Positions 774-33,056 of a DNA stretch of 64,000 nucleotides are shown here, in pieces. The notes beneath the pieces were generated by a model that made no database searches, had not been told where the DNA came from, and worked only from the letters and a program-made list of their open reading frames with translations. Numbering within the stretch: the stretch's first letter is position 1; every line of letters starts with the position of its first letter. Source of the stretch: a virus; IMG/VR virus record IMGVR_UViG_3300045988_073455, one strand, 5' to 3'. Made by a program: the position numbers and the translations under genes.

Positions 774-775
774 TT

Positions 776-7633: not shown

Positions 7634-7937
7634 GAGGAATAGTCATAAGTGATAGTTATATATATTATGGAAGTGATGGCTCGTATCATATAATACGCCC
7701 GATAGGAGAAGGATTTGATATAGAGACAGCTTTCTTAATAGCCTTGGTGATTGTTGCTATATACGTCATGTTTCATTATTCCCCAAAGGAAGTTTGGAAT
7801 AAAATAAAGTCGTATTTTAAAGAATTATAGTTATGGTTGGATTTTATGTTATTCTTACCATAGCTATTCTATATATAGCTTTTGTGGGCGGAGTTATCGG
7901 TTATTTAATTGGTAAATATTGGAAAAAGAAATAGCGT

Positions 7938-8303
7938 ATGAATATAAAAGACATCAAGTTCAAGGGTAAACGTCTTGACAATAACACTTGGGTAGAAGGT
8001 TACTTCTATGCTGAATGTGGTAACACTTACATCATCGAGGATAGGCAGAGTGAATCAATGCTTAATAGAAACGAGGCACATCGGGTTAACCCTTCAACAG
8101 TCTGTATGTTCACAGGACTGACAGACAAGAATGGAACACCTATCTATGAGGGGGATATAGTTATGTACAAAGATAACAATGCGGAAAGAAGAGGTGATAT
8201 TAATTGGGATAGTAAATCTACTGCTTTCTGCTTTGGGCAAGATTTCTTAGTTCACTACCCTTCTGAAGATATGGTAGTTGTCGGCAACAAATTCGATAAG
8301 TAG
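7938..8303 (+). CDS. YopX-like protein
   Basis: KGKRLDNNTWVEGYF...VCMFTGLTDKNGTPIYEGDIV matches the YopX signature as I recall it. Start is in motif II. Confidence 0.6.
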   Translation: MNIKDIKFKGKRLDNNTWVEGYFYAECGNTYIIEDRQSESMLNRNEAHRVNPSTVCMFTGLTDKNGTPIYEGDIVMYKDNNAERRGDINWDSKSTAFCFGQDFLVHYPSEDMVVVGNKFDK

Positions 8304-8306
8304 CGT

Positions 8307-8540
8307 ATGAAGAATAAGATATTAGACTTTATCAAATCAGCCGTTTGGCTCTTTTTGATTTTCATAATAGGGGTATTTGGTTTTAGGGTTTCTTTCAGCT
8401 TAGGAACTCCACACAAAAAAGAAGAGTTTAATATAAAAATATTCACCAAGAAAGGACATGAATACCTGTTTGTGGGCAAGGAACATGGAGCTTGCGTTAT
8501 TATTCACGCTAGTAGTTGTCCTTGTAATAAAAAGAAGTAG
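8307..8540 (+). CDS. small membrane protein
   Basis: 77 aa with TM segment AVWLFLIFIIGVFGF. Start is in motif II. Confidence 0.45.
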   Translation: MKNKILDFIKSAVWLFLIFIIGVFGFRVSFSLGTPHKKEEFNIKIFTKKGHEYLFVGKEHGACVIIHASSCPCNKKK

Positions 8541-8543
8541 CTT

Positions 8544-8915
8544 ATGAAAGTAAAGAATTTACCAAAGAAGATTTACCTCAACATCTGTAGCAACGAAGAT
8601 GTGGTAGATTACAATAAGCTGAACGGAGTAACGTTCAGCTCAGAAAAGGTTGGTGTTACCGATTGTGATACGGAAAACGTTCCTTACGTGAATGCTGCAT
8701 CATTATGGCGCGACCTAAAAGAAGATAAGCCACCATTAAGAAAGTGGGTGATGTTCCGATATAGTGGAGGTGGCGTAAATCCTACGGCTCTTCACTACGG
8801 AGCAATGAGTGATGATGTATGGATTGTCACAAGAGGAGACGGAACACAGCGTATTGAAGTTCTGTACGAGTGCTACGATAAAATAGAGTGGCTTGATTTT
8901 GATGAACTAAAATAG
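8544..8915 (+). CDS. hypothetical protein (possibly DUF551-like)
   Basis: 123 aa. The pattern W..L.EDKPP...WVMF resembles DUF551 phage proteins. This is weak. Confidence 0.45.
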   Translation: MKVKNLPKKIYLNICSNEDVVDYNKLNGVTFSSEKVGVTDCDTENVPYVNAASLWRDLKEDKPPLRKWVMFRYSGGGVNPTALHYGAMSDDVWIVTRGDGTQRIEVLYECYDKIEWLDFDELK

Positions 8916-8924
8916 TAATAGCGT

Positions 8925-9245
8925 ATGAAGGTTAGATTAGCTAAGAAGATTATGAAACGTTGCTACGGAAGTCCTCACTATTTAAGGATGGTATTGGATG
9001 GTTTAGATGTATCGAAAAAGCAGCCTAAGATTAAGCAATACTGGGAGCCTAGATGGGCTTCGTATTATGCTAGCAAAGGTGGTGGTTATGGCAGAGCTGA
9101 CCATCGTATCGTAAAGGCTGAAAAGATTACTGCAAGATATTCTCGTAAGCTAATGAATTGCCTTACTAGATGGGCTGGCAAAACTCCTTTCGAGGTTAGA
9201 GATACATTAAGTAGTGCAAATAAACTAAAAAGATATGACTTATGA
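8925..9245 (+). CDS. hypothetical protein
   Basis: 106-aa basic ORF. Start is in motif II. Confidence 0.5.
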   Translation: MKVRLAKKIMKRCYGSPHYLRMVLDGLDVSKKQPKIKQYWEPRWASYYASKGGGYGRADHRIVKAEKITARYSRKLMNCLTRWAGKTPFEVRDTLSSANKLKRYDL

Positions 9246-11625: not shown

Positions 11626-12645
11626 ATGAAGACAGACAACGTTTTAGAGCATTTCGCTGAAATGATGATTTCACGAATGCAAAAGATGAAGGCAGGAGAT
11701 TGGAAGATGGGTTGGTTCACCACATCTTATGGTGGTAACCCAGTGAACCTTGGAGGGCGTGAATATAATGGAATGAACTCATTCTTCCTGTTCCTCTGCA
11801 TGATGGACGAAGAAAGATTCAAATATCCTATCTTTGCTACCTTCAATCAGATAAAGGCATTAGGAGCTAGTGTGAACAAAGGAGAGAAAAGCTTCCCTGT
11901 TCTGTTTTGGTCCATTCAGTACAAAGACAAGAATGGAAACAAAATAACAGAAGACAGCTACAATGGAATGACTCGATCAGCCCAACTAGACTGCAAAGTC
12001 CAGCCTTTCTTGAAGAGCTACAACGTGTTCAATCTCAGCCAAACCAACCTCGAAGAGATAGCACCTAAGACGATGCAGAAGTTGAAGGAGAAGTTCAGTC
12101 TCAAAGATAAGGATGAGTTGCCGACAGACACGGCTGGTATGTACGTCAACGAGAAAATTGATGATATGCTTCTTTATCAGAAGTGGCTCTGCCCTATCCG
12201 CTACGACAAGTATTCAAGTGGAGCTTTTTACAGATTTGGGGTAGATGATATTACAACACCACTTAAAAGTCAGTTCAAGAAGGGCAATACAGAGCAGGAG
12301 ATATTCGAGGATGGACAGGAGTACTACTCAACCCTTCTACATGAAATGGTTCACTCAACAGGGCATAAGTCTAGATTGAATAGAGGGTTTGAGAATGAGA
12401 AAGGAGAAAAGGACTATGCAAGAGAAGAGTTGGTTGCAGAGCTTGGAGCAGCTCTTATCGGAAACGTCCTAGGCTTTAGCAGTCGCATTTTAGATAATAA
12501 CGCTGCTTACCTAGATGGTTGGATCAGCAAGCTTAAAAAGCAACCAAAGTTCATCGTTTCTGTTTTGACAGACGTAAACAAGGCAGCTAAAATGGTATTA
12601 GAAATCGTGAACAAAGAAAAGGCACAATTACTAATGCCTGCATAA
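11626..12645 (+). CDS. ardC: ArdC-like anti-restriction protein (ssDNA-binding N-domain plus zincin metalloprotease)
   Basis: 339 aa. The N-terminus has the ArdC/DUF1738-like pattern (GGNPVNLGGREYNGMNSFFL), and the C-terminus has HEMVHSTGH (HExxH). Start is in motif I. Confidence 0.75.
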   Translation: MKTDNVLEHFAEMMISRMQKMKAGDWKMGWFTTSYGGNPVNLGGREYNGMNSFFLFLCMMDEERFKYPIFATFNQIKALGASVNKGEKSFPVLFWSIQYKDKNGNKITEDSYNGMTRSAQLDCKVQPFLKSYNVFNLSQTNLEEIAPKTMQKLKEKFSLKDKDELPTDTAGMYVNEKIDDMLLYQKWLCPIRYDKYSSGAFYRFGVDDITTPLKSQFKKGNTEQEIFEDGQEYYSTLLHEMVHSTGHKSRLNRGFENEKGEKDYAREELVAELGAALIGNVLGFSSRILDNNAAYLDGWISKLKKQPKFIVSVLTDVNKAAKMVLEIVNKEKAQLLMPA

Positions 12646-20485: not shown

Positions 20486-21034
20486 ATGGAACAGAAGTTA
20501 TTAGATTTGATTATCCATATAGGACAAGTTAGAGGTTGGGCTGTAGATGCTACAGATAATGGCAATGACTTTGCCTACATCTTCTTTCAGCGTTATTCTC
20601 CTGCTGGTCAAGATTTCAACATGTCAATCGAAATGCCAAACAATGACCCGAATGAGTTTTTGAAGAACCTCGATGATTACTACGAGAACTTCGATCCAGA
20701 TAGTGAAGCCCTAAACCGGTGTGACAAAGAAGGTCATGGTATAAATGGAGCACCCAAACGCTTGAAGGATATCATCATTGATTTCGAGGAAATCGAAAAG
20801 GAAATCAAAGAACTCCTAGAAGTGTTCAATCTTCAAATAGAGGAACTAGAGAAAGCTGCCATTCACAAGGTTAAAGTGCAAGTCACCGAATACCTGCAAA
20901 AGGTAGTGGAGGTTGATGCCATCAATGGCAGTGACGCATGCGATAAAGTCGAAGAAATGGTTAATGGATCAGAAATCATCTTGACAGCAGACGATTTCAC
21001 AACAAGAAACATTGAGCCTTATGAAGATAAGTAA
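20486..21034 (+). CDS. hypothetical acidic protein
   Basis: 182 aa. Start lies in TTAGAGCAATGG, a motif I variant. Confidence 0.6.
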   Translation: MEQKLLDLIIHIGQVRGWAVDATDNGNDFAYIFFQRYSPAGQDFNMSIEMPNNDPNEFLKNLDDYYENFDPDSEALNRCDKEGHGINGAPKRLKDIIIDFEEIEKEIKELLEVFNLQIEELEKAAIHKVKVQVTEYLQKVVEVDAINGSDACDKVEEMVNGSEIILTADDFTTRNIEPYEDK

Positions 21035-21666: not shown

Positions 21667-22011
21667 ATGAAACTGATTACGAAAGAAATTAAGAAGAGAC
21701 TGGAAAAATATCCTCTCTACTCGCAGGATGGTAAAAAGGAAGAAGCCATCTGTCAAGCAAAGTTCTTCCTTTGTGTTGGTGCATGGTCTTGGTTCATATT
21801 GGAAGCAGACCTAGAGAACAATATCGCCTACGGAATCACTATCAATGGAAGTGGTGAAGGCGAGTACGGCTACACAAGCTTAACCGAGTTGCAGGGGCTA
21901 ACAACTAAGTTAGGCTTAACCGTAGAGCGAGACACCTCATTCTCCCCTACTCCACTAAAGGATATTAATAACGAATATCTAAAGAAGTTTCTTAAGAAAA
22001 TGTACGCTTGA
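21667..22011 (+). CDS. DUF2958-like protein
   Basis: KYPLYSQDGKKEEAICQAKFFLCVGAWSWFILEAD...YGYTSLTELQ matches the DUF2958 pattern as I recall it. Motif I start. Confidence 0.55.
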   Translation: MKLITKEIKKRLEKYPLYSQDGKKEEAICQAKFFLCVGAWSWFILEADLENNIAYGITINGSGEGEYGYTSLTELQGLTTKLGLTVERDTSFSPTPLKDINNEYLKKFLKKMYA

Positions 22012-22038: not shown

Positions 22039-22072
22039 CTATTTGTTGATTAAATAATTTTATCTATCTTTG
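22039..22072 (+). promoter_or_regulatory. class II promoter copy 2
   Basis: CTATTTGTTGATTAAATA at 22039..22056 and TAtcTTTG at 22065..22072. It is preceded by AAAATAATTTCTCACTTTTTT, which is shared with the copy at 33205. Confidence 0.65.
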
Positions 22073-22090
22073 CAAAAAGTTACAAAAGAA

Positions 22091-22489
22091 ATGAAGATTT
22101 ATACATCATACTTCTCAAACGGAGCTAAGTTAGCAAAAGCTGGTATCATGATGATCGGCATTGCCCTCTACCCTCCGAAATGGTTTACAGGATTATCAAA
22201 CAAGTACGTGTCACCATCATGGGACATTCTTCACAACTCCAAATCGGAAGAAGATTACGTACAACGTTTCAATTCTGAGATATTGGCTCATCGGGACCCA
22301 AAAGCATTTCTCTCAGCAATAGAGAAAATGGCAAATGGAAAAGATGTAGCTCTATGTTGCTTCGAAAAGCCAGATGATTTTTGCCATCGCCACCTAGTGG
22401 CAAAATGGCTGAATGAAAAGCTGGGAGTGCAGGTCGAGGAATTTGGAATTTCCAAGAATCCTGTTTACTCGGAGCAAAGCTTGTTTTAG
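22091..22489 (+). CDS. DUF488-like protein
   Basis: First ATG of track ORF 22070..22489. Sequence MKIYTSYFSN...VALCCFEKPDDFCHRHLVAKWL (C-x-E...CHR signature). Confidence 0.55.
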   Translation: MKIYTSYFSNGAKLAKAGIMMIGIALYPPKWFTGLSNKYVSPSWDILHNSKSEEDYVQRFNSEILAHRDPKAFLSAIEKMANGKDVALCCFEKPDDFCHRHLVAKWLNEKLGVQVEEFGISKNPVYSEQSLF

Positions 22490-22573
22490 GAATTCCTCCT
22501 TTCAAAATACACACAATGGTTGACGGCTCGGAAAGACGAGCATTTTTGCGTGTATAGAATATTGTTATTATAA

Positions 22574-22646
22574 GCGGAGATAGCTCAGTTAGCAGAGCGC
22601 AGTGATACCATCACTGAGGTCGTTGGTGCGGCTCCAACTCTCCGCT
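22574..22646 (+). tRNA. non-canonical tRNA-Gly-like, anticodon ACC
   Basis: 73-nt cloverleaf. Acceptor GCGGAGA/TCTCCGC with discriminator U. D arm GCTC-AGTTAGCA-GAGC lacks G18G19. Anticodon arm CAGTG-ATACCAT-CACTG. T arm GTTGG-TGCGGCT-CCAAC has no TTC. Confidence 0.6.
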
Positions 22647-22651
22647 CTTTT

Positions 22652-22725
22652 GCGGGTATAGCTCAGTCGGTCAGAGCGTTACATTCCCAATGTGAAGGTC
22701 GAAGGTTCGAGTCCCTCTAGCCGCT
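22652..22725 (+). tRNA. tRNA-Gly (anticodon CCC) with stem mismatches
   Basis: Acceptor GCGGGTA/TAGCCGC has a G5.G68 mismatch, discriminator U. Anticodon loop TTCCCAA. T arm GAAGG-TTCGAGT-CCCTC has an A51.C63 mismatch. Confidence 0.7.
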
Positions 22726-22754
22726 CTATTTTTGTAGAATTAAAATAAAAGAGC

Positions 22755-23822
22755 ATGAAAATAGCAGTTATAGGAACGGGCAACGTGGGAGTAGCTTTTG
22801 CCGCAGACCTCTCTATTAAAGGTCATGAAGTTACACTCCTAAAGACATCTTCATACAAATCAGATGCCTTTGATAGACTTATCAAGAACGGCAAAAGGGT
22901 TTTTCTTAAAGAGAAATCAACTTATATAGAAACTGCAATCAAAGAGGTTTCTAAAGACCTCAGTAAGGTTGCAGAAGCAGAAGTTATATTTTGTACTATT
23001 CAGAGTAACTTCTATGAGGGTCTAGTAGAACGTATACATCAATACCTTCACAATGATCAGATTGTTGTCTGTATCTCTAGTTACGCATCCTCTTTCTATT
23101 TTGAGAAACATTGCAGAAAACTACCAATGTTAGTTGAAGCAACAGGTCCATATTTGGAAGGACGAGTAGAGTTGGATGATAAACCAAACGAAGTTGTTTT
23201 TCGTGTTGGTTATAGGCATGAAGTTATTCCTGTAGCATGCTTTTCTAATCATGATACCTGCATGGAGAAACTGCATAAAATTAGCAAAGGTTTTATAGCA
23301 AAATATTGCGTGCTTGAATCTGCATTACTCAATCCAAATATGGTGTTGCATACGGTAGGTTCAATTATGAGTATTCCGAGAATAGAATATTCAAAGGGAA
23401 ATTTCTGTATGTATCGTGAAGCATACGCAAGAGGAAATGACTCCACCATCAATCTATTGATGAGACTTGACGAAGAAAAGATGAAAGTCTTAAAAAGCTT
23501 GGGCTTTTTCAAAACAAGCGTATTTGAAGCAGGAGGTTTTAATATGTCAGACCCAATAGAGAGTTTGCATCGTTACTCAGAATCTAGTGATAGAGCCATC
23601 AGCCCAACATCTGTTCACTCACGTTACATCACAGAAGACGTTTCAGAGGGATTGGTACTGATGGAGAGTATTGCACTTCATATAGGCTTAGAGTTACCAG
23701 TTACATCATCCCTCATTACGCTTGCAAGTGTAGCTTTAGGAATAGACTTCCGTAAGACAGGAAGAACTATTCAGAGATTAGGTATTATTAACGAAATAGA
23801 TATGCTTCATGAATGTAGATAG
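22755..23822 (+). CDS. NAD(P)-dependent opine (octopine/nopaline) dehydrogenase-like oxidoreductase
   Basis: 355 aa. N-terminal Rossmann motif MKIAVIGTGNVGVAFAADL. The C-terminal RYITEDVSEGLVLMESIA...LPVTSSLITLAS resembles the octopine-DH C-domain. Confidence 0.6.
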   Translation: MKIAVIGTGNVGVAFAADLSIKGHEVTLLKTSSYKSDAFDRLIKNGKRVFLKEKSTYIETAIKEVSKDLSKVAEAEVIFCTIQSNFYEGLVERIHQYLHNDQIVVCISSYASSFYFEKHCRKLPMLVEATGPYLEGRVELDDKPNEVVFRVGYRHEVIPVACFSNHDTCMEKLHKISKGFIAKYCVLESALLNPNMVLHTVGSIMSIPRIEYSKGNFCMYREAYARGNDSTINLLMRLDEEKMKVLKSLGFFKTSVFEAGGFNMSDPIESLHRYSESSDRAISPTSVHSRYITEDVSEGLVLMESIALHIGLELPVTSSLITLASVALGIDFRKTGRTIQRLGIINEIDMLHECR

Positions 23823-25887
23823 CGATATAAAAAACAGAACATTTGGTATTGAAATCGAAATGTGCAATCTTGAAAGGGCGAAGGTAACTTTGCCCGAAGG
23901 TTACTCCTGGAGCAAGGAAGAGAGCATTGATAATACCGATTGTTCAAGCAATAAGCAGTTTGGTGGAGAGGTAAATACCCCTCCACTACATCTTTGCTGC
24001 CTAAAGGAATTGCACGACCTCCGCTCTGTATATGAATCAATGGTTGCTGCAGGTGGCAGGCTAAAATGGAGCATCTACACCCATGTGCACATTTATGTCG
24101 GTGATTTACCTGTTGATCAGATAAAGAAAGTATTCCTATTCTTCTATCTGTGTTACCATTATTTTAAGCAGTATGCTAAAATATCAGAATGCGATGAGCT
24201 TATATCCATAGCGATGCCAACTCCAACGGAAAAGTATTATAAAGGAGTCCTGCAGGCTCAGACTTTCGAGGATATTCAGAAGTTATTCACTAACAACTCA
24301 AACAAAGGTTTCATACGTCATGCAGTGAATATTTCTGCATATTTTAAGACAAAGACGATAGAGTTTAGACTTTATCATGCTACTGATGATTTCTATCAAG
24401 CTATGGCTTGTGTTCTTTCCACATACAGGCTATTTTATTACGCTATAAGCCACGAATTGGAGGATTTCAAATCAATTACATCATACCAGCAGTTCTGTGA
24501 GGTTACTGGGCTTAAATATGATGTTCCAGACGAATTATGTCCGCTAATCTACCAAGGAAATCCATACGACAAGGTAGAGTCGTATATGACAAAGCCTTTA
24601 CCATACAATTCTGAAATGGTTTCAGCTCTGTATGATGCTGTAAAAGCTAACGGACACAAGGAAATCTGCATAGTAAATGGCTTCATGTATTACTATGAGT
24701 TATTCTTCCTTGATAAGATGGAAGTATCTATATACTGCCAAGATGCCTACTGTTATCTGCTCTATATGTTGGCAAATGGTAAAACATCACTAACATATAA
24801 GGATAAGCTTGCATGGTTGGAGGACTATAACAATTCTACACCATCAAGACAGCTTGCTTTGGCTCTTTATGCGGTGAAACTGCAAAAGTATTTCATGAGT
24901 GAATCGGCAAGAAATAGTGCCATCTTCGAAGCGTTGAAAATTAAGGCAAGGGAATCTATCGAGAAAACCGAGGAGGCAAATGAGCGATTGATGAGATTAC
25001 TCACTACATGTGATTTCCATGTCGGAACACTAGAAGAAGCCATCAAGAATAAGAAGGTAATCTTCTTTAATTACGGAAGAATAGAGAAAAAGCAGAAGAG
25101 AGCATTCAAACTCATTTCTGAGAATAGTGACTTGAAATCAGACTTTTCTGTTGCAAGGAACGACTACTATAATCTTGTGGAAAGTATTCCGAGTGATAGT
25201 TATTTCTATTATTTCAGCAACAGCCCTTATCTGAGAAACCTGCATAAGATAGCTATGTGGAATAATTCAAGTGGGGAAAGACGGTCTGCAGGAAGGTTCC
25301 TATATTGCAATAAGCCAACTGCACAAAACAATGCAAGCACCTCGTATTCTTCATACAGAATCGAATGCAATGAGATAGTTCCTCCAGATGATTTGGAGAT
25401 TACAGACGCAAATAAGCTAAAGATTGAACGAGTAACCCCTCCTTTACTTCATTGCTTGCAAAAGAAGTATATCAAGAAGGTGGACCAATGTAGTGTCTGT
25501 CAATTTGCTTTTGTGGTGAAATACGACAAATATACCCTAGGTGGATTTGGTTTTACGCTACCTCAACACAAGGGGTATGATTTGTTTCAGTTAACGGACT
25601 TCTGCACGAATAACGCAATCCCTCGATTGAGTAAACTCATACTGTACTGCATTCAGTCTGTAGGCGTTCAAAGATATGTGAGCAGAAGAATGCGCAAGCT
25701 TTGCGAGAAGGTTATCTCCTGCGCTTATACCCATAAGCCAGTGAGTATGAAATATCGTGGCGTATACAAGAAAGTGAAGGAACACTGCACATCATCTTAT
25801 CTTGCTTACGAAGGAATACTTGGTATATACCCTACGAATAAGAAAATCATTGAGAAATATCAAAAATCGTTGAAGAATGGAAAATGA
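23809..25887 (+). CDS. Amidoligase_2 (GS-like COOH-NH2 ligase) fused to an approximately 460-aa uncharacterised C-terminal region
   Basis: 692 aa. The N-terminus has FGIEIEM...DNTD...GGEVNTPPL...THVHIY...HAVNISAYFKTKTIEFRLYHATDD. Its start overlaps the upstream gene by 14 nt. Confidence 0.65.
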   Translation: MNVDSDIKNRTFGIEIEMCNLERAKVTLPEGYSWSKEESIDNTDCSSNKQFGGEVNTPPLHLCCLKELHDLRSVYESMVAAGGRLKWSIYTHVHIYVGDLPVDQIKKVFLFFYLCYHYFKQYAKISECDELISIAMPTPTEKYYKGVLQAQTFEDIQKLFTNNSNKGFIRHAVNISAYFKTKTIEFRLYHATDDFYQAMACVLSTYRLFYYAISHELEDFKSITSYQQFCEVTGLKYDVPDELCPLIYQGNPYDKVESYMTKPLPYNSEMVSALYDAVKANGHKEICIVNGFMYYYELFFLDKMEVSIYCQDAYCYLLYMLANGKTSLTYKDKLAWLEDYNNSTPSRQLALALYAVKLQKYFMSESARNSAIFEALKIKARESIEKTEEANERLMRLLTTCDFHVGTLEEAIKNKKVIFFNYGRIEKKQKRAFKLISENSDLKSDFSVARNDYYNLVESIPSDSYFYYFSNSPYLRNLHKIAMWNNSSGERRSAGRFLYCNKPTAQNNASTSYSSYRIECNEIVPPDDLEITDANKLKIERVTPPLLHCLQKKYIKKVDQCSVCQFAFVVKYDKYTLGGFGFTLPQHKGYDLFQLTDFCTNNAIPRLSKLILYCIQSVGVQRYVSRRMRKLCEKVISCAYTHKPVSMKYRGVYKKVKEHCTSSYLAYEGILGIYPTNKKIIEKYQKSLKNGK

Positions 25888-26605
25888 AGATAGATGGAAA
25901 TACGCAAAAGTTGATATAAACCTCATAGATGAGGTAGAAATCAATGCAAATGAAATGTCGGGTGAAGACTTCGCCCAACTAACAGACAACATTGCTAAGT
26001 CTGGATTGAGTAGTGTGCCTACCTGTATCAAGAAGGATAATGGTAGATACATCATGATCAGCGGTAATCATCGTTTGAGAGCATGCAAGAAACTGCACTA
26101 TAAAATGCTAGGCATCTTATATGTAGAAGAGAGCGAGATTACAAATGATGAAGCTATTGCTATTGAATTATCTCACAACTCCCTTCATGGTGAAGCTAAT
26201 GTTAGCATCTTGAAGAAGTTGTTTGCATCAATTCAATCTATCGACTTCAAGAAGTTTGCTCATGTGAACATTGACGAGATTAAGCCCATAAGCACAGAGG
26301 GTATAAATGTATATGCCATGCAGGAGAATTTCGTATTCACAATCATCCTCTACCCTAGCTCATTTGCAAGTCTGGACACATTGTATGGGGATATTCGTGA
26401 ACAAGCTCGCAAAAGTGATGCTCTCGTTCTAGCTTCCGAAGAAGATAACGAGAAAACCCTGCTTAAAATCCAACAAGAGATAGGTAAGGAGTTTGGCATA
26501 AAATCCCCAAGCATCACATTTGCAAAGTTGCTAGAGTTAGCAAGTGAACGTTTAACCGAAATAAAGGAAGGAGAAAAAGAAAATGATTTGGAGCATAACA
26601 AGTAA
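25877..26605 (+). CDS. ParB N-terminal-domain (ParB/Srx) protein
   Basis: 242 aa with IMISGNHRLRACKKL (the GxHR motif). Overlaps the upstream gene by 11 nt. Confidence 0.65.
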   Translation: MENEDRWKYAKVDINLIDEVEINANEMSGEDFAQLTDNIAKSGLSSVPTCIKKDNGRYIMISGNHRLRACKKLHYKMLGILYVEESEITNDEAIAIELSHNSLHGEANVSILKKLFASIQSIDFKKFAHVNIDEIKPISTEGINVYAMQENFVFTIILYPSSFASLDTLYGDIREQARKSDALVLASEEDNEKTLLKIQQEIGKEFGIKSPSITFAKLLELASERLTEIKEGEKENDLEHNK

Positions 26606-27440
26606 GAAGGAAATGGAAGAACTGAATACACCTTCAGTTTTCAGATATTACCAAGAAGCACTTGGTAGAGAAAATATCCAATTAGCAGTTGTTGACGAGA
26701 CAGACAACCTCGACTTCATTGACAAAGAGGATGTCGTATTGCTAAGAACTGCAAGTGAGTTACTCATCAATACAATCCGAAAAAAAGGTGTAAGGACCAC
26801 GGCAGAAGATTTTAGCAAGTACGAACTTGTAAGGGATAAAGCTAAACTTGCAAGATGGCTTACAATGAATGGTATTAGAGTACCACATCAGTATCATCAG
26901 GTGTTTGACTTGCACGGAAAAACTTATTTCGTAAAGCCTAGATATGGAAGTGATAGTGTTGGTATCTCTGAACTAAACATCTGTCACACCGCGGATGAAA
27001 TCAGAGTTCAAACAAAAAAGCTTGATCCGAAAGGTAAAGGAGACGTTGTTATAGAAGACTTTATAAATGGAAGAGAATTTACGGTTGTCTGCATAAAAGG
27101 CTTTCCCCTCAGAACATTTGTAATGGAGGTAATCTGTACAACAAATGGCGGCATCCAAACATACGAAAGCAAGAAAAACTATATGGAGGTCGGCTGCAAG
27201 GTCTATGGAGATTTAGATGATAGGGCTAAGAGGATAGCTTCCGATGTTTTCTCCAGTCTTGGGTTACAACATCATGCACGTATTGATATGCGCTGCGATA
27301 ATGAAGGTAACCTTTACGTGATAGACGTCAATCTCCTTCCTGGTCTCGGACCTATTGGAGATTTAGCACGTTGCTTGTTGCTAACAGAAAATATGTCTTA
27401 CATAGATGCTTTGAAAGCAGTCATAGCATCTGCAAGTTAG
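26583..27440 (+). CDS. ATP-grasp ligase (D-Ala-D-Ala-ligase-like)
   Basis: 285 aa with YFVKPRYGSDSVGI, VIEDFINGREFTV and ARIDMRCDNEGNLYVIDVNLLPGL. Overlaps the ParB-like gene by 23 nt. Confidence 0.7.
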   Translation: MIWSITSKKEMEELNTPSVFRYYQEALGRENIQLAVVDETDNLDFIDKEDVVLLRTASELLINTIRKKGVRTTAEDFSKYELVRDKAKLARWLTMNGIRVPHQYHQVFDLHGKTYFVKPRYGSDSVGISELNICHTADEIRVQTKKLDPKGKGDVVIEDFINGREFTVVCIKGFPLRTFVMEVICTTNGGIQTYESKKNYMEVGCKVYGDLDDRAKRIASDVFSSLGLQHHARIDMRCDNEGNLYVIDVNLLPGLGPIGDLARCLLLTENMSYIDALKAVIASAS

Positions 27441-27451
27441 AAAGGTTGATT

Positions 27452-27805
27452 ATGACAAAGGTAAGAAGAACAGAATTAAAAAAAATTGCCGCTGCTTATG
27501 AAAAGAAAGGCGGCAATATGGCTGCTACGGCAGTAGCTTTGGGCATTACACGACAAGCCTTATATAACTGGCGAAAAGAGGATGAGAAGTTAGCCAAGAT
27601 GTTGGATGATATAGATGAAGGCATTCTTGACTTTACTGAAAGCAAGCTGGTCGAAAAGGTGAACGAAGGTAATCTAACTGCAATAATCTTCCTTCTGAAA
27701 ACTAAGGGCAAGAAGCGTGGCTATGTCGAGCAAGTAGATAACAGATTAGTAGAAAACCCATTCGAGAAGTTAATGAAGGAGCTTCCCGATGATGAAGAAG
27801 GATAA
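27452..27805 (+). CDS. terS: terminase small subunit (HTH type)
   Basis: ATG at 27452 inside track ORF 27371..27805. Has the HTH AATAVALGITRQALYNWRK and IIFLLKTKGKKRGY. Positioned upstream of TerL. Confidence 0.6.
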   Translation: MTKVRRTELKKIAAAYEKKGGNMAATAVALGITRQALYNWRKEDEKLAKMLDDIDEGILDFTESKLVEKVNEGNLTAIIFLLKTKGKKRGYVEQVDNRLVENPFEKLMKELPDDEEG

Positions 27806-27807
27806 TT

Positions 27808-28137
27808 ATGTATAACGGAGAATTGTATATACCAGACTGTTTGTTTCCTACGGACAATCCGTTGGAGATACCATGTTTGTTGTCTGATGTGCAACCTCAG
27901 TACATAGAAATCCCATTCTATTGCTTTGGTGAGCAGGCAAGAACAACGAATATGAATGGCAGGGGAACACTCCACTTCTATACTGACGATTATAGATTCC
28001 GGTCAATCTATGAGAAGCCAGAGAAGATTTTGAAGTACAACCCTGGCAGTATTATTGAGCCAAACTTCAGCTTATCAAATGATACTCCAATAGCTTTTGA
28101 GAACCATGAGCATGAGTTCTATAGGTGGGGGGAATAA
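27808..28137 (+). CDS. DUF4417-like protein, apparently the N-terminal fragment only
   Basis: 109 aa. GTLHFYTDDYRFRSIYEKPEKILKY...EPNFSLSNDTPIAF matches the first half of DUF4417 as I recall it, then the ORF ends. Confidence 0.45.
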   Translation: MYNGELYIPDCLFPTDNPLEIPCLLSDVQPQYIEIPFYCFGEQARTTNMNGRGTLHFYTDDYRFRSIYEKPEKILKYNPGSIIEPNFSLSNDTPIAFENHEHEFYRWGE

Positions 28138-28588
28138 GCAAGAAAGCTTCAGTGGCACCAAATCTTATGGCTTCAAGCTCGGTGGAAGAGATGTTGAAGC
28201 AAACTTTAAAAACGGAGCTATTGAAAAAATAGATCAGTACTTTAATCTCTCAACAAAGGATAGGTCTAGATTGCGTAACGCTGTGTCACACGTTCTTGGG
28301 AATACTTTGAATAAAACCAAGGGAAATGAGGTTGATGAGTATATGGTTGGCGGTTTCGATGGAACAGGACTTCGTATAATATCCTCTAGAAATAATTTTA
28401 CAAAAAATATGATGATGGTAGATAAGTATGGAGTCGTCGAATATGGCAAGGGAACAGTCGACCCGTATTTGTTTAGAGGCGAAGACATCAACCCTAAAGT
28501 GTTTAGTAAAGTATTAGACAGGGCGTTAAGAGCGCTTAAAAATCCATATAATGGAGATATAAAGCATAGAGATAAATGGAATATATAA
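28106..28588 (+). CDS. hypothetical protein
   Basis: First ATG of track ORF 28097..28588. No motif recognised. Confidence 0.5.
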   Translation: MSMSSIGGGNKQESFSGTKSYGFKLGGRDVEANFKNGAIEKIDQYFNLSTKDRSRLRNAVSHVLGNTLNKTKGNEVDEYMVGGFDGTGLRIISSRNNFTKNMMMVDKYGVVEYGKGTVDPYLFRGEDINPKVFSKVLDRALRALKNPYNGDIKHRDKWNI

Positions 28589-29112: not shown

Positions 29113-30627
29113 ATGTCAGAACAGAAAGCAATAAAAAAAATGATTGCATGGCGCAATGATTGGTGTCTCTTCGCTAAGGAAGTCTTGAAGGCTCGCCTTG
29201 ACGAAGAGCAAAAGGCTATATTGCGTTCTGTTCAAAAGAACAAAATGACAACGGTAGCCAGTGGAACTGCAAGGGGTAAGGACTTCATCGCTGCCGTAGC
29301 CGCTTTATGTTTTCTATACCTCACTCCTCGCTTCGGCAAGGATGGTAGTTTAGAAAAGAACACCAAGATTGCCCTTACAGCACCAACAGGAAGACAGGTA
29401 ACAAACATCATGATACCAGAAGTGGCACGTCTTTACAAAAAGGCAGGCTTCCTGCCTGGTCGTTTGCTGTCGGATGGCATCAGAACTGATTATGAGGAAT
29501 GGTATCTGACAGGTTTCAAATCTTCAGCCGACAACACAGAGGCTTGGTCGGGATTCCATGCTGTAAACACCATGTTCATCGTAACAGAAGCATCCGGTAT
29601 CTCGGACACCATCTATAATGCAATCGAGGGTAACCTGCAAGGTAACTCTCGATTGCTATTGGTATTCAACCCAAACGTTACTACAGGGTATGCAGCCAAC
29701 TCCATGAAGTCTCCCAGATTCAAGAAGTTTAGATTATCATCTCTCAACGCAGAGAACGTAGTAAGCAAGAAAAACATTATCCCTGGTCAAGTTGACTATG
29801 AATGGGTATCCGATAAGGTCTCAGCATGGGCACAGAAGATCAGAAAGTCTGAGTTTGATGAAGGTCGTGGTGATTTTGTGTGGGAAGGTGGATATTACAC
29901 TCCAAATGACCTTTTTCGTGTTAAGGTTCTCGGTATGTTTCCGAAGGTGTCCGAAGATACCCTCATTCCATACGAATGGTGCGAGATTGCCCATAGAAGA
30001 TGGAAGGAACTTAAAGATAGTGGCTTTATCACCCATAAGCCAATACGCTTAGGTGTCGATGTCGCAGGTATGGGTCGCGATAGGTCTTGCTATGTTCCAC
30101 GACAAGGAAATTATGTTTCAGAAATCAAGTGTCATAATTCGGGTGGTCATGCGGACCACATGGCAGTCGCAGGTCAAGTCGCACACTACCTAAGTTTGAG
30201 TTCAAAGAATAAAGCATTCATTGATACCATTGGAGAAGGTGCTGGAGTTTATTCAAGACTCATAGAGCAAAAGTATTTAACTGCATTCTCTTGCAAGTTC
30301 TCGGAAGGCGTGAGAAACAAGCATGATGTGACAGGCTGCTACTCTTTCGCTAACATGAGGGCTTATCTGTTTTGGTGCATACGTGACTGGCTCAACCCAA
30401 AGAATGGATTCTTTGCAGCACTCCCACCTGACGATGAGTTGGATCAAGAATTGTGCGAAGTGCATTGGCTGTTTCAGTCAGATGGTTCAATCATCATGGA
30501 ACCAAAAGACGAAATCAAGAAGCGTCTGAAACGTTCTCCCGACAAGATGGATGCCCTTGCCAACACCTTCTATCCATACGACTTCGATAGAGACAATGAT
30601 TTGCAATTGTTAAATAGTATAGTATAA
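29113..30627 (+). CDS. terL: terminase large subunit
   Basis: 504 aa. Has a Walker-A-like ASGTARGKDF, a Walker-B-like MFIVTEA, and the nuclease-domain start LGVDVAGMGRDRS. Confidence 0.8.
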   Translation: MSEQKAIKKMIAWRNDWCLFAKEVLKARLDEEQKAILRSVQKNKMTTVASGTARGKDFIAAVAALCFLYLTPRFGKDGSLEKNTKIALTAPTGRQVTNIMIPEVARLYKKAGFLPGRLLSDGIRTDYEEWYLTGFKSSADNTEAWSGFHAVNTMFIVTEASGISDTIYNAIEGNLQGNSRLLLVFNPNVTTGYAANSMKSPRFKKFRLSSLNAENVVSKKNIIPGQVDYEWVSDKVSAWAQKIRKSEFDEGRGDFVWEGGYYTPNDLFRVKVLGMFPKVSEDTLIPYEWCEIAHRRWKELKDSGFITHKPIRLGVDVAGMGRDRSCYVPRQGNYVSEIKCHNSGGHADHMAVAGQVAHYLSLSSKNKAFIDTIGEGAGVYSRLIEQKYLTAFSCKFSEGVRNKHDVTGCYSFANMRAYLFWCIRDWLNPKNGFFAALPPDDELDQELCEVHWLFQSDGSIIMEPKDEIKKRLKRSPDKMDALANTFYPYDFDRDNDLQLLNSIV

Positions 30628-32209: not shown

Positions 32210-32386
32210 ATGGAAGAGAACGTTATCATAGCAATGGATGCCGAAAAGTCTAAAAAGATAAAAGGCATTCCTTCAAGTTGGGACTGGGAAGATATTCATT
32301 TCTACCTCATTACTGAATTGGGATTCAATTTTGATGTTGTGTTCAATTATTCAAAAGACATAGAGGAGGTATCTTATGAAGGATAA
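32210..32386 (+). CDS. hypothetical small protein (58 aa)
   Basis: Hand-translated MEENVIIAMDAEKSKKIKGIPSSWDWEDIHFYL... Start lies in ATAGAGCAATGG, a motif I variant. Confidence 0.4.
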   Translation: MEENVIIAMDAEKSKKIKGIPSSWDWEDIHFYLITELGFNFDVVFNYSKDIEEVSYEG

Positions 32387-33056
32387 TGCAAGAACTATCA
32401 AGTACGATTCTATCACATCATACGTAAAGGAATATGGGGTAGAATATCTTAGTAACGAGAACCTTATTGCTTCAATTATCGGTATAGACCCTATGCTACA
32501 GGGTAATGAACCAATAAGAAAAATCTTTGATGGTAGTCATTCCCTCAGAAAGACAAGCAAGAGTACATTGCAGGAGCTTACATCTATCAAAGGAATAGGT
32601 GAAAAGAAGGCTACCGCTATACTCGCTGCATTCGAACTTGGCAGAAGATTCATGAAAGAGAAGTCGCAAGAACTTACAGATTTGGGTAGTTCTCTCGACA
32701 TCTACAACTATATTTTACCATACGTCAAGGATTTAGAAATAGAAGAATCTTATCTGTTCTGTATGGATAGCAACTTCAAGTTAATCAAAATGGTTCGATT
32801 GTCACAAGGTGGAATATCAGAAACCACTATAGACGTAAGAATTGTGTGTAAAGAAGCTATCTCCTGCAATGCCGTAATAATAGCATTGGTTCACAATCAT
32901 CCAAGCCCTAACTGCTTTCCATCAAAGTCTGACGATGAGATAACATATAAGATACAGAAGGCTTGTGAAATTATGAGATTGTATTTTATGGACCACGTTA
33001 TCATCAGTAGCAAGTCCGATCAGTATTACTCTTACCACGACAAAGGGAGACTATAG
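32376..33056 (+). CDS. radC: RadC-like JAB/MPN domain protein
   Basis: 226 aa with an HhH region (LTSIKGIGEKKATAILAAFELGRR) and the JAMM motif ALVHNHPSPNCFPSKSDDEIT. Confidence 0.85.
   Translation: MKDNARTIKYDSITSYVKEYGVEYLSNENLIASIIGIDPMLQGNEPIRKIFDGSHSLRKTSKSTLQELTSIKGIGEKKATAILAAFELGRRFMKEKSQELTDLGSSLDIYNYILPYVKDLEIEESYLFCMDSNFKLIKMVRLSQGGISETTIDVRIVCKEAISCNAVIIALVHNHPSPNCFPSKSDDEITYKIQKACEIMRLYFMDHVIISSKSDQYYSYHDKGRL

Follow-up and report, generated by a model that had tools for sequence, protein, structure and literature searches.

A conserved Dam-like/GNAT and ParB-like gene module with linked tRNA-Gly genes in a phage of a gut bacterium, and its possible role in DNA modification

The DNA analysed here is a 64,000-nt stretch of viral sequence (IMG/VR record IMGVR_UViG_3300045988_073455), referred to as the window. 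Positions 22,039 to 27,440, just ahead of the packaging genes, hold a group of enzyme and tRNA genes belonging to a gene set that is widespread yet unstudied, carried here by a phage of a gut bacterium. The following features were assigned.

22042..22072, plus strand: Bacteroidota-type promoter of the extended TTTGTTGATTAAATA class, from the motif count in the window
22091..22489, plus strand: DUF488 gene (N3a subclade), 132 aa; Pfam PF22751 DUF488-N3a 1e-12, phrog_2450 3e-40
22526..22549, plus strand: terminator-like hairpin and T-run in the DUF488/tRNA interval; consensus match only
22574..22647, plus strand: tRNA-Gly(ACC), tRNA-1; ARAGORN, Rfam 49.7 bits
22652..22726, plus strand: tRNA-Gly(CCC), tRNA-2; ARAGORN, Rfam 61.5 bits
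22755..23822, plus strand: opine (octopine/CENDH-type) dehydrogenase, 355 aa; Pfam Octopine_DH 1.7e-27 and NAD-binding N-domain
23809..24510, plus strand: fusion protein N-domain, GS/YbdK-like amidoligase, about aa 1-234; Pfam Amidoligase_2 2.6e-15, Foldseek YbdK 1r8g 5e-4
24523..25380, plus strand: fusion protein middle, degenerate Dam-like domain, about aa 239-524; Pfam PF22556 DAM-like-phage2 1e-90 (residues 239-419)
25411..25887, plus strand: fusion protein C-domain, GNAT-phage-like, aa 535-692; Pfam PF22559 4e-36 (residues 535-687)
25877..26605, plus strand: ParB/Srx-fold protein, 242 aa; phrog_7405 1e-67, other ParB PHROGs ~1e-10
26583..27440, plus strand: Ddl-like ATP-grasp ligase, 285 aa; Pfam Dala_Dala_lig_C 2.6e-15
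27449..27805, plus strand: small terminase subunit terS; PHROG terS families, HTH_8; downstream end of the transcription unit, context only

The promoter, TTTGTTGATTAAATAATTTTATCTATCTTTG at 22042-22072, is of the Bacteroidota type (TTTG-N19-TAtcTTTG). Motifs of the form TTTG-N18-21-TAnnTTTG occur 12 times in the whole window against 1.66 expected, and the extended form TTTGTTGATTAAATA is found at four sites (12771, 22042, 33240 and 56959), the first of which precedes the portal gene. An earlier sequence-only reading of this DNA had placed a promoter of the portal gene's class ahead of a DUF488-like gene, as we find. It had also described four operon-like ORFs before terS with overlaps of 14, 11 and 23 nt, and the coordinates (22755-23822, 23809-25887, 25877-26605 and 26583-27440) bear this out. 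The ATP-grasp stop codon is followed after 8 nt by the terS ATG at 27449, and TerL lies at 29113-30627. A TTG at 22070 falls within the promoter -7 box; the true start of DUF488 is probably the ATG at 22091, which gives a protein of 132 aa, matching relatives. The terminator-like element, unmentioned in the earlier reading, consists of a hairpin at 22526-22541 followed by the T-run; this putative element may be leaky, or else may serve as a processing site.

According to ARAGORN the window contains only two tRNAs, both tRNA-Gly, and these are as odd as had been noted. tRNA-1 has A34, A18 in place of G18 and a T-loop of UGCGGCU (G55, G58), and its CCA is not encoded, while the Gly identity set (G1:C72, C2:G71, G3:C70, U73, C35 and C36) is kept. 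Its A18/G55 elbow (UAG D-loop/UGC T-loop) is retained in all 'GCGGAGA'-type orthologues. tRNA-2 has the mismatches G5.G68 and A51.C63, and its position 34 is A in some relatives. Both have a 7-nt anticodon loop with U33 and could still decode. We propose that tRNA-1 is a dedicated glycyl donor.

The calls of amidoligase, ParB-fold and ATP-grasp enzymes made from the sequence stand, as does that of an opine dehydrogenase, which matches CENDH (PDB 1bg6) at 5e-17 over residues 3-344, the full length. The 'uncharacterised' 460-aa C-terminus of the fusion protein, on the other hand, consists of the degenerate Dam-like and GNAT domains, and its family already has database entries (Pfam PF22555/PF22556/PF22559, phrog_2443). 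In an AlphaFold model of the fusion (pLDDT 87), Foldseek matched YbdK, E. coli Dam and GNATs. The amidoligase domain has E15, E17, G52, T57, P59, H94, R170, E185 and R187 invariant among 24 representatives. The middle domain matches E. coli Dam 4rtj/2g1p at ~5e-3 with a probability of 0.99; the Dam fold is kept and the SAM and DPPY motifs are lost, stand-alone homologues having CSGNF, SNDVS and FPPTY where the window protein has IVNGF, CQDAY and FFNYG. A GNAT- or Mom-like fold had been suggested for the C-terminus, and a GNAT domain was indeed found; its best structural hits include Naa60 (5.5e-4) and Mu Mom 8bv8 (2.6e-3). Residues S646, K648, Y649, R650, G651 and D597 are invariant, the SMKYRG motif is invariant in the family, and the Q/RxxGxG/A loop that binds CoA is absent from the domain. 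We propose that it is an aminoacyl(glycyl)-transferase. Its sequence shows no detectable relationship to Mom (hhalign probability 0.2%), and in structure N-terminal acetyltransferases resemble it at least as closely; for these reasons only gene linkage points to the glycyl donor.

The ParB-like protein matches Pfam ParB_N at only 2e-3, below the cut-off of that family. It contains ParB-like motifs of the NAxxM, SGNHR and QLSHN type, with SGNHR conserved in 54 lineages. In DUF488, C90, C98, H99 and R100 are invariant among 55 diverse homologues (a C..C-H-R motif); its AlphaFold model (pLDDT 89) gave no confident match in a PDB fold search.

Relatives of the fusion protein were grouped at ≤55% identity into 58 lineage clusters. 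These span Bacteroidota, Thermodesulfobacteriota, Chloroflexota, Planctomycetota, Actinomycetota and Bacillota, as well as Enterobacterales, Pasteurellaceae, Alpha- and Betaproteobacteria, a CPR bacterium and a methanogen bin. The Dam-like/GNAT protein and the adjacent ParB-like protein form an invariant core: their genes adjoin in 57 of the 58 clusters, often overlapping, and are fused in L148, L151 and L154. DUF488, present in 44 of the 58 and usually near the core genes, is a core accessory gene. Together with a tRNA-Gly-like gene that is very often internal, these make up a module conserved across many phyla. DUF488 and tRNA-Gly are thus not the mere preface to an operon that they had been taken for, since both belong to the conserved set, as do ParB and the fusion protein's GNAT half. 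The four ORFs, in turn, are not a co-conserved unit. Three parts are exchangeable additions seen in Bacteroidota members only: the opine dehydrogenase, the ATP-grasp ligase and the amidoligase domain, the last being absent elsewhere. The opine dehydrogenase is missing from L029-L038, where the fusion protein is 89% identical, and from others. The ATP-grasp ligase, which scores under the NCBIfam Ddl cut-offs, comes in three or more divergent forms (100/56/37% identity), with two copies in some relatives; other Bacteroidota phages have an AlaDH/PNT-type enzyme in its place, or neither. All of these exchangeable enzymes (OpDH, AlaDH/PNT-type, several ATP-grasp types) perform amine/carboxylate chemistry.

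The tRNA genes of the relatives were compared using ARAGORN and a covariance model. Upstream tRNAs within 1.7 kb were called by ARAGORN in 13 clusters, with tRNA-Gly among them in all 13; by covariance model, a Gly-type element lies within the module in at least 23 of the 58 clusters and at 2-6 kb in another 6, several of the calls by the two methods falling below the Rfam tRNA threshold. Outside Bacteroidota, all covariance-model matches inside the module are of the Gly type, other tRNAs being >2.5 kb away. Among 30 aligned sequences G1, C2, C35, C36, G71, C72 and U73 are invariant, whereas 16 of the 21 stem pairs have changed in a compensatory way; what the module tRNAs retain is exactly the set of elements read by bacterial GlyRS (G1:C72, C2:G71, G3:C70, U73, C35 and C36). 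Position 34 varies among A, C, U and G in orthologues, A34 (ACC) is seen repeatedly in distant lineages, and 24 of 61 unique Gly-like tRNAs have a 5-6-nt anticodon loop, a non-U33 or a pyrimidine at 37. About 16 nt 5′ of the GNAT gene there are also 66-nt mini-tRNAs whose loop reads G-ACC-A or G-CCC-A and whose CCA is encoded. Judged from sequence, the decoding features of these RNAs are often decayed or variable, and many would be unable to decode. A tRNA-Gly element was not found in about half of the 58 lineages, and in some relatives the same slot is taken by tRNAs for Asn, Ile, Met, Lys, Ser, Arg, Cys or Phe, all but Ile and Phe being noted for close relatives; a phage-encoded tRNA is therefore dispensable.

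These other tRNAs would suit an explanation in which the genes are unrelated neighbours, namely a codon-supplementing tRNA island beside four ORFs whose products synthesise a small molecule or peptide tag with no tRNA or DNA role, such as a metabolite, an opine-like compound or a Fem/Ddl-style modification of the cell envelope or peptidoglycan. The window tRNAs have standard loops, GGU accounts for 42% of Gly codons, more than any other, and the Ddl-like, racemase-like and GS-like enzymes resemble peptidoglycan chemistry. However, GGG, the codon of tRNA(CCC), is used least of the Gly codons (6%), position 34 drifts between orthologues, the small-molecule enzymes are not conserved alongside the core, and Gly-type genes, including non-decodable mini-tRNAs, abut GNAT in unrelated backbones and distant phyla. 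We regard this explanation as very improbable.

Our preferred reading, to which we give about an even chance on the basis of sequence, models and analogy, is that the region encodes a tRNA-Gly-dependent, Mom-like, post-replicative DNA hypermodification that counters restriction and is expressed late, before packaging. Host GlyRS would charge the phage tRNA-Gly(-like) RNA, and the GNAT domain would move the glycyl group from the tRNA to the exocyclic amine of a DNA base. Because the middle domain is Dam-derived, adenine N6 is the best guess at the target, with this apparently non-methylating domain perhaps binding or flipping the base; the target is least certain in the lineage of the window, since the Dam-like motifs there have degenerated, the adenine-binding PPY among them. 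The ParB-like partner is proposed to load or activate the enzyme on double-stranded DNA. In the present phage, which is of the Segatella type, the GS-like amidoligase, Ddl-like ATP-grasp and opine dehydrogenase might then build a bulkier adduct on the glycyl amine, through acylation, peptide extension or reductive carboxyalkylation. The dehydrogenase is proposed to alkylate an amine reductively, using an alpha-keto acid; which substrates the three enzymes use, and in what order they act, is guesswork. This elaboration would diversify under arms-race pressure, and DUF488, with its invariant Cys/Cys-His-Arg, would be a required helper. If this is true, glycine-charged tRNA serves to decorate phage DNA against host restriction.

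Three targets had been suggested for the cassette: packaged DNA, a virion protein or a host envelope component. DNA is the best supported, given the Dam-like fold fused to GNAT, the obligate ParB-like partner and the precedent of Mom. On the protein-target view, glycyl or acyl groups would be attached by the GNAT, either alone or together with the amidoligase and ATP-grasp, to a defence protein of the host or to a packaging or virion protein of the phage. The dead Dam-like domain would then, like ParB, do no more than recruit the GNAT to DNA-bound targets; the donor might still be Gly-tRNA. The NCBI family name, 'GNAT-like putative antirestriction protein', agrees with this and does not distinguish DNA from protein. 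The nearest structural GNATs are the protein N-terminal acetyltransferases Naa50/Naa60, peptide tagging is the classical prediction for GS-like and ATP-grasp amidoligases, the GNAT gene frequently adjoins terminase genes, and injected-protein-type anti-restriction domains (ArdC-N+MPTase, DpnD/PcfM and RadC) occur in the neighbourhood. We nevertheless consider a protein target unlikely, as the Dam-derived fold is fused in the whole family and the adenine-pocket-like FPPTY of stand-alone members would be hard to explain; the sole characterised phage GNAT that uses tRNA-Gly acts on DNA.

The toxins TacT and AtaT, which are GNATs, acetylate Gly-tRNAGly, and the toxSAS FaRel2 pyrophosphorylates tRNAGly, which it chooses via the acceptor stem. 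PMC13219725 discusses TacT. The tRNA-Gly-like RNAs could by analogy be substrates, decoys or replacements in a conflict over tRNA, with aminoacyl-tRNA as the target of the GNAT instead of its donor for DNA; a conserved acceptor stem with decaying anticodon loops suits a decoy. We hold this to be highly doubtful. It leaves the Dam-like domain, the obligate ParB and the amine-elaborating enzymes unexplained, and the family is without the CoA-binding loop motif of acetyl-CoA-dependent toxins. C35 and C36 are also invariant. A decoy for a toxin reading the acceptor stem alone accounts for this less well than does recognition by GlyRS, which would mean that the RNA has to be charged.

The sequence-only interpretation is partly supported overall, its sequence-level observations being confirmed. 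The core is also present in cultured phages, Mycobacterium phage Taptic and Gordonia phage Clawz, which makes the system directly testable; in Taptic the sole annotated tRNA, tRNA-Gly(UCC), abuts the GNAT gene, with ParB next. That no characterised system has this gene combination is true, and we found no published paper on the module as a system, although the protein family is catalogued and a precedent for the use of Gly-tRNAGly exists. Staphylococci retain non-proteogenic tRNAGly for Fem transferases (PMC7826273). A phage thymine dioxygenase (T-dioxygenase) needs a ParB homologue on dsDNA (PMC13229309), and that homologue is a model for the ParB-like loader or activator proposed here. Mom, itself a GNAT, acts late in infection, when it passes glycine from Gly-tRNAGly on to N6-adenine in dsDNA (PMC13219725).

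The cassette (22039-27440, plus strand) precedes terS, whose ATG is at 27449, and carries the following elements.

22042-22072, plus strand, Bacteroidota-type promoter TTTG-N19-TAtcTTTG of the extended class TTTGTTGATTAAATA...
22091, plus strand, ATG of the DUF488 gene, which is called at 132 aa in relatives
22526-22541, plus strand, terminator-like hairpin between DUF488 and the tRNAs
22574-22647, plus strand, tRNA-Gly(ACC), here tRNA-1
22652-22726, plus strand, tRNA-Gly(CCC), here tRNA-2
22755-23822, plus strand, opine dehydrogenase (OpDH) gene
23809-25887, plus strand, gene for the 692-aa amidoligase/Dam-like/GNAT fusion
25877-26605, plus strand, ParB-like gene
26583-27440, plus strand, ATP-grasp ligase gene

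The sequence-only reading had described two tRNA-Gly genes followed by four ORFs with overlaps of 14, 11 and 23 nt that run up to terS. This layout was borne out; the last stop lies 8 nt 5' of terS, and the two tRNA genes are the only ones in the window. The shared promoter type proposed for the cassette and the portal gene was also recovered, since the extended motif lies at both 22042 and 12771. The class TTTGTTGATTAAATA...TAtnTTTG has four copies, at 12771 (before the portal gene), 22042, 33240 and 56959, and the general promoter pattern was found 12 times in the window versus 1.66 expected. The ORF-finder start of DUF488, TTG 22070, falls within the -7 box. A second extended class, TTTGGTCA...TAyCTTTG, has five copies (1924, 10732, 17820, 21303 and 30929), and two distinct extended classes suggest that there may be two temporal classes of transcription.

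The 460-aa C-terminus of the fusion, previously called uncharacterised, matches two Pfam families: PF22556 (DAM-like-phage2) at residues 239-419 (1e-90; 302.7 bits, cut-off 27) and PF22559 (GNAT-phage-like) at residues 535-687 (4e-36; 124.8 bits, cut-off 27). The protein matched phrog_2443 at 2e-181, and its Dam-like-then-GNAT order is that of the PF22556/PF22559 family. In the N-terminal domain, Amidoligase_2 scored 57.4 bits in Pfam (cut-off 22), and the invariant acidic, His and Arg residues are of the metal/ATP-binding type (E15, E17, H94, R170, E185 and R187). A sequence search of the C-terminal half against the PDB gave no usable match, and NCBIfam and PADLOC were uninformative for the fusion. 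An AlphaFold model made from 24 diverse full-length homologues had a mean pLDDT of 87. Using Foldseek against the PDB, we found that the N-domain matched the YbdK/GCS2 carboxylate-amine ligase 1r8g (5e-4), the middle domain matched E. coli Dam (4rtj, 4rtq and 2g1p; E 5e-3 to 8e-3, probability 0.98-0.99) and the C-domain matched many GNATs, among which phage Mu Mom (8bv8) came eighth and tenth (8bv8_B, E 2.6e-3, probability 1.00).

The suggestion of a GNAT- or Mom-like fold for the C-terminus thus held for structure, where the GNAT fold was found and Mom was matched, but not for sequence. No Mom-family Pfam match was obtained at E<=0.1, and hhalign of the GNAT profile against the Mu Mom sequence gave a probability of 0.2%, which rules out a Mom homologue at the sequence level and leaves the likeness at the fold level. 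The C-domain is a GNAT and not a Mom-family member. Motif comparison across the family found SMKYRG invariant in the GNAT domain and the Q/RxxGxG/A CoA loop absent from it. Dam catalytic motif IV, (D/N/S)PP(Y/F), and SAM motif I, FxGxG, were not found in the Dam-like domain of the fusion, which reads FFNYG and IVNGF, respectively, at these positions. In the stand-alone homologues, CSGNF, SNDVS and FPPTY replace the FxGxG, ND and DPPY of Dam, the first residue of FPPTY being neither acidic nor polar, and even these motifs are lost in the window protein. Because of the replacements in the homologues and the further loss in the window, a methyltransferase role would not be plausible for the Dam-like domain.

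The domain calls of the sequence-only reading (DUF488-N3a, Octopine_DH, Amidoligase_2, ParB/Srx and Ddl-like ATP-grasp) were all confirmed by profile searches. DUF488 matched DUF488-N3a and has invariant residues C90, C98, H99 and R100. A sequence search of the PDB returned nothing usable for it; its predicted structure was confident, yet Foldseek gave no reliable fold (best E 0.028), and we built nothing on the weak likeness to Cys-phosphatase-like and tetrapyrrole-methyltransferase N-domains. The ParB-like protein matched phrog_7405 (1e-67), ParB PHROGs (~1e-10) and TIGR00180 (2.7e-6), scored below the cut-off with Pfam ParB_N (18.4 versus 26.3) and has an SGNHR motif, with the box II GxxR-type arginine, that is kept in 54 lineages. 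A ParB/Srx (ParB-CTPase) fold is predicted for it. A partition ParB of a ParABS system was rejected, as no HTH or ParA family was found in the protein or its neighbours, so that the HTH centromere-binding domain and the ParA partner are lacking, and the TIGR00180 score of 27 is far under the cut-off of 58. OpDH matched PF02317 Octopine_DH (96.7 bits, cut-off 30) and Rossmann NAD(P)-binding families and aligned over its full length with CENDH 1bg6 (5e-17; residues 3-344 on 7-346), which identifies it as a predicted opine dehydrogenase of the octopine/CENDH type. The ATP-grasp protein scored 56.9 with the Ddl-type Pfam family (cut-off 24) and fell under the NCBIfam/TIGR Ddl equivalog cut-offs (best NF002378, 60 bits versus 243). 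By these scores it is a putative ligase of the Ddl-like branch only and not a D-Ala-D-Ala ligase proper. Its TALE-repeat matches in the PDB were disregarded, with zero qualifying stretches.

The fusion is abundant, with 761 database matches and close relatives in Segatella copri genomes, and the NCBI product name of its family is 'GNAT-like putative antirestriction protein'. An exhaustive representative search yielded about 30 three-domain representatives (24-72% identity) and many proteins of ~430 aa without an amidoligase domain that consist, by a Pfam check, of PF22555 (DAM-like-phage1) and PF22559. The survey covered 244 loci of IMG/VR and GTDB genomes, annotated by iterative profile searches and ARAGORN. 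A ParB-like gene adjoins the Dam-like/GNAT gene in 57 of the 58 clusters formed at <=55% identity; overlap between the two is usual, and in three loci (L148, L151 and L154) they are fused. Of these clusters, 44 also carry DUF488 in the locus, and terminase subunits are the most frequent other neighbours. The hosts of this module include Thermodesulfobacteriota, Chloroflexota, Planctomycetota, Actinomycetota, Bacillota, Enterobacterales, Pasteurellaceae, Alpha- and Betaproteobacteria, a Paceibacteria bin and a Methanobacterium bin.

The four ORFs, which had been read as one small-molecule or peptide-tag kit, are not conserved together: OpDH, ATP-grasp and the amidoligase domain are not kept with the core. 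Bacteroidota phages whose fusions are 60-99% identical have the order DUF488, tRNA slot, OpDH (optional), fusion, ParB, ATP-grasp (optional), terS and terL. OpDH is missing in the 89%-identity group and others. The ATP-grasp versions of relatives are 100, 56 and 37% identical; the gene occurs twice in L091 and not at all in L104, L106 and L107. Muribaculaceae/Bacteroidales prophages with three-domain fusions (L097-L105) have a ~400-aa AlaDH/PNT-type enzyme after ParB instead of ATP-grasp (for example, L102 11696-12913 and L101 11661-12911). Outside Bacteroidota, no OpDH, AlaDH/PNT-type enzyme, ATP-grasp or amidoligase domain was found in the loci annotated. Among the Muribaculaceae/Bacteroidales prophages, L095, L096, L104 and L106 have a 286-aa protein between DUF488 and the fusion (~8130-9000), and that of L096 has a weak Ala_racemase_N match. 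What is conserved as a unit is ParB and DUF488 together with the fusion's GNAT half.

The tRNAs belong to this unit too. ARAGORN detected tRNAs in the 1.7 kb upstream, on the same strand, in 13 clusters, and in all 13 a tRNA-Gly(-like) gene is among them. In an alignment of 30 Gly-like RNAs, G1, C2, C35, C36, G71, C72 and U73 are invariant and G3:C70 is nearly so; stem cells are 97% paired, with compensatory changes in 16 of 21 pairs. These positions coincide with the bacterial GlyRS identity set (PMC7826273). The identity elements (G1:C72, C2:G71, G3:C70, U73, C35 and C36) are carried by 57 of 61 unique Gly-like sequences and by both window tRNAs. Since Rfam misses the most degenerate tRNA-like elements, its tRNA model supporting only the less degenerate ones, a family-specific covariance model was made from the alignment. 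It detected Gly-type elements (GCG...CGC-U, NCC) in loci outside the training set, positioned between DUF488 and GNAT, between GNAT and ParB (L145 and L147) or directly 3' of ParB (L128, L156, L208, L221, L226 and L175). Such an element lies inside the module in at least 23 of the 58 clusters and at 2-6 kb in six more; ARAGORN and the covariance model found no Gly-type RNA in about half of the clusters. Outside Bacteroidota, the in-module matches of the covariance model are all Gly-type, and other tRNAs (Arg, Lys, Glu, Leu, Met, Phe and Gln) lie >2.5 kb from the module. One Dehalococcoidia bin (L116) has a canonical tRNA-Gly(GCC) at the contig start (1-46) and a tRNA-Leu (83-166), ~5 kb 5' of the GNAT gene, as well as a degenerate Gly-type element (7824-7896) at the ParB gene, so that this bin has tRNA-Gly of both the host type and the module type.

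The tRNA slot of some close relatives holds other tRNAs instead. Sister phages have one scaffold (acceptor 'UAGCAGU...ACUGCG') with anticodons GAU, GUU, GCU and CCU and non-U33 loops (L050 6614-6689, L052 2736-2808, L053 6764-6838, L054 6527-6599 and L061 6741-6812). This resembles a tRNA family that switches anticodons or is unusual in some other way, and it differs from the Gly-type RNAs. An origin of the window tRNAs as attP or integration-site remnants was rejected because their genes are part of the operon and the integrase is far away, at 62.6 kb.

Judged from their anticodon arms, many of the Gly-like RNAs of the module would be unable to decode. Among the 61 unique ARAGORN sequences, 24 have 6-nt loops, A, G or C at position 33, or a pyrimidine at 37. 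In a large Thermodesulfobacteriota-type cluster, elements of 66 nt with an encoded CCA lie ~16 nt 5' of the GNAT gene; each folds as a compact cloverleaf whose 5-nt loop reads G-ACC-A or G-CCC-A. Position 34 varies among A, C, U and G, and the anticodon ACC, which to our knowledge is essentially unused by bacterial tRNA-Gly, reappears in distant lineages. The window tRNAs are milder, both with 7-nt loops and U33. tRNA-1 has A34 and a swapped elbow, A18/G55 instead of the usual G18/U55, common to all orthologues in the 60-99% identity range, and tRNA-2 has mismatches in the acceptor stem and the T-stem (A51.C63). The phage uses GGU, GGC, GGA and GGG for 42, 21, 31 and 6% of its Gly codons; consequently, demand does not explain the CCC tRNA, although it could explain the ACC tRNA. 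If the genes were unrelated neighbours, ordinary phage tRNAs would lie beside a metabolite or envelope kit. This would cover part of the data, and we consider it improbable. A conflict centred on tRNA, with the phage RNA as decoy or substrate as for TacT, AtaT or FaRel2, likewise covers part of the data; it too seems to us quite unlikely.

The module is directly testable in cultured actinophages. Megablast of the cassette region against cultured phages gave no match, and tblastn with the whole fusion found Gordonia phage Clawz alone, through the GNAT part only. A stand-alone homologue as query retrieved 15 actinophage records. In Mycobacterium phage Taptic, annotated with 92 CDS, the single annotated tRNA is a tRNA-Gly(UCC) at 51204-51277 that abuts the Dam-like/GNAT gene gp92, with the ParB-like gp91 next. 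In Clawz, an unannotated Gly-type element lies 108 nt 5' of gp29, and gp30 is annotated as a 'ParB-like nuclease domain protein'.

We propose that the phage tRNA-Gly(-like) RNA would be charged by host GlyRS and that the GNAT domain would pass its glycyl group to a base of the DNA that the Dam-like domain presents, with ParB assisting on duplex DNA and DUF488 as a helper. In the window phage, the amidoligase domain, ATP-grasp and OpDH would tailor the free amine or adduct. The architecture, conservation, tRNA features and linkage were observed in the loci; we infer what donates and what accepts, the order in which the steps occur and what ParB and DUF488 do. Three lines converge on the model: the linkage of tRNA-Gly genes, the Dam-derived fold fused to a GNAT and the precedent of a ParB homologue acting on dsDNA. 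Use of Gly-tRNA by the GNAT is probable. The five-step, Mom-like scheme of Gly-tRNA-dependent DNA modification is, taken as a whole, evenly balanced between right and wrong, and the specific tailoring chemistry is less probable than that. In relatives, non-homologous AlaDH/PNT-type enzymes of comparable amine/keto-acid chemistry replace the accessory enzymes, and such swapping would be the pattern expected for tailoring steps under diversifying selection. Glycylation or acylation of a protein could also serve anti-restriction; this is the least improbable of the alternatives, though still unlikely. Each of the three covers part of the data, but none explains together why the Dam-fold fusion is universal and ParB obligate, why C35/C36 are invariant along with the acceptor stem, and why there are mini-tRNAs that cannot decode. 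A thymidine pathway of the 5-hmdU type was excluded because none of its genes is present: dUMP hydroxymethylase, TET/JBP, 5-HMUDK and aGPT-Pplase had no Pfam match among the scanned window ORFs of >=150 aa.

Returning to DNA as the acceptor, we tentatively extend the model. A large class of phages, spread across phyla, may keep non-decoding tRNA-Gly or mini-tRNAs solely as glycine carriers for DNA aminoacylation by the Dam-derived/GNAT protein with ParB and DUF488, and in gut phages of Bacteroidota the amidoligase, ATP-grasp and OpDH may extend the glycyl group to a peptide- or opine-like nucleobase adduct. We know of no such adduct chemistry seen on DNA before.

Other genes of the window were also annotated. 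Around the cassette (11626-12645, 20486-21034, 21667-22011 and 32376-33056) lie ArdC-N with MPTase-PolyVal, DpnD/PcfM, DUF2958 and RadC domains, typical of anti-restriction or conjugative-element proteins, and the phage therefore has several independent counter-defence candidates. The DUF4417 gene after terS (27808-28588 region) is shortened, aligning only with residues 1-117 of the 257-258-aa protein of close relatives (e.g. L001 13994-14767), and is followed by an unrelated 163-aa ORF (28097-28588); the DUF4417-to-terL interval differs in length between relatives. A reverse-transcriptase ORF (RVT_1, 5.7e-8; 52109-53491, plus strand) among the tail genes is a candidate for a diversity-generating retroelement. 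A tyrosine integrase (Arm-DNA-bind_5, SAM-like and Phage_integrase; 62637-63809, minus strand) marks the element as temperate, and a small nSTAND3/IstB-like NTPase ORF (767-1381, plus strand) lies at the opposite end of the window.

The sequence-only reading knew of no characterised system with this gene combination. A full-text literature search, with Iyer et al. 2009/2013 outside its scope, found no paper on the module, the ParB/DUF488 partnership, the tRNA-Gly linkage or the non-decoding tRNAs. The protein family itself, however, is already catalogued (Pfam, PHROG and NCBI name) and generically predicted to be anti-restriction, and hence is not unknown. Several features are unprecedented within tRNA-dependent GNAT modification of DNA. 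Such modification was established lately for a single enzyme, Mu Mom; the present locus appears to point to a much larger, architecturally different family with the same donor, comprising hundreds of database proteins in many phyla, for which private, translation-incompetent tRNA-Gly genes seem to be a further evolutionary step. If confirmed, the model would define a new, abundant class of DNA hypermodification in human-gut Segatella/Prevotella phages and actinophages, give ParB-fold proteins a second role as partners of DNA-modifying enzymes and provide a context for DUF488-N3. It would also account for 'odd' or single phage tRNA genes that codon usage leaves unexplained and offer enzymes for site-directed DNA aminoacylation or derivatisation. 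In practice, such DNA may resist restriction enzymes, sequencing or library preparation.

Iyer et al. 2009 (Mol Biosyst) reportedly predicted phage GS-like/ATP-grasp amidoligase systems by comparative genomics. They share with the window Amidoligase_2 (GS/YbdK-like) and ATP-grasp proteins in a phage and predicted amide-linked tags; the tags are said to be peptide, metabolite or cell-wall ones, and the predictions reportedly held neither a Dam-like/GNAT fusion nor a tRNA-Gly/ParB/DUF488 linkage. Thymidine hypermodification clusters contain 5-HMUDK, aGPT-Pplase and PLP/rSAM enzymes, and amidoligase genes without an assigned role have been remarked in them (PMC8989533). By analogy, both systems would combine a core DNA-attachment step with swappable tailoring enzymes and yield amino-acid-derived adducts, but attachment there is by pyrophosphate displacement on 5-hmdU whereas here it would be acyl transfer from tRNA. 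The phage thymine dioxygenase 5mYOX176 requires a ParB homologue, ParB176, specifically on dsDNA (PMC13229309). There, as here, a ParB/Srx-fold gene without a ParA partner lies beside the gene of a phage enzyme that modifies DNA or, in our case, is proposed to do so, and a similar role on dsDNA may apply; the partner is an Fe/2OG dioxygenase in that system and a GNAT in ours.

In Staphylococcus, non-proteogenic tRNAGly isoacceptors supply the Fem transferases FmhB, FemA and FemB (PMC7826273). Dedicated tRNA-Gly species that retain GlyRS identity elements are known there and proposed here, and deviations in the D and T arms, plus the anticodon here, would withhold them from translation in favour of an aminoacyl-transferase with a GNAT-like fold. 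The Fem acceptor, however, is a peptidoglycan precursor and the RNAs are cellular and full-size, whereas ours are phage-encoded, include mini-tRNAs as short as 66 nt whose loops have 5 nt, and are tied to DNA-binding modules. The only characterised enzyme that joins a phage GNAT, tRNA-Gly and DNA is Mom. Late in infection, it transfers glycine from Gly-tRNAGly to adenine N6 in dsDNA, and rearrangement on the base gives 6-NcmdA (PMC13219725). Mom (8bv8), one of the top structural matches of our GNAT domain, shares with it the phage GNAT fold, late expression, the lack of a canonical CoA pyrophosphate-binding loop, a tRNA-Gly link (biochemical for Mom, genomic here) and a presumed post-replicative action on dsDNA that evades restriction. 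In contrast, Mom acts alone with an HTH-like insert and uses a host tRNA, while the GNAT family described here, without sequence or profile homology to Mom, is always fused to a Dam-derived domain, paired with ParB and usually DUF488, and often supplied with its own non-decoding tRNA-Gly, to which the window phage adds an amidoligase domain, ATP-grasp and OpDH.
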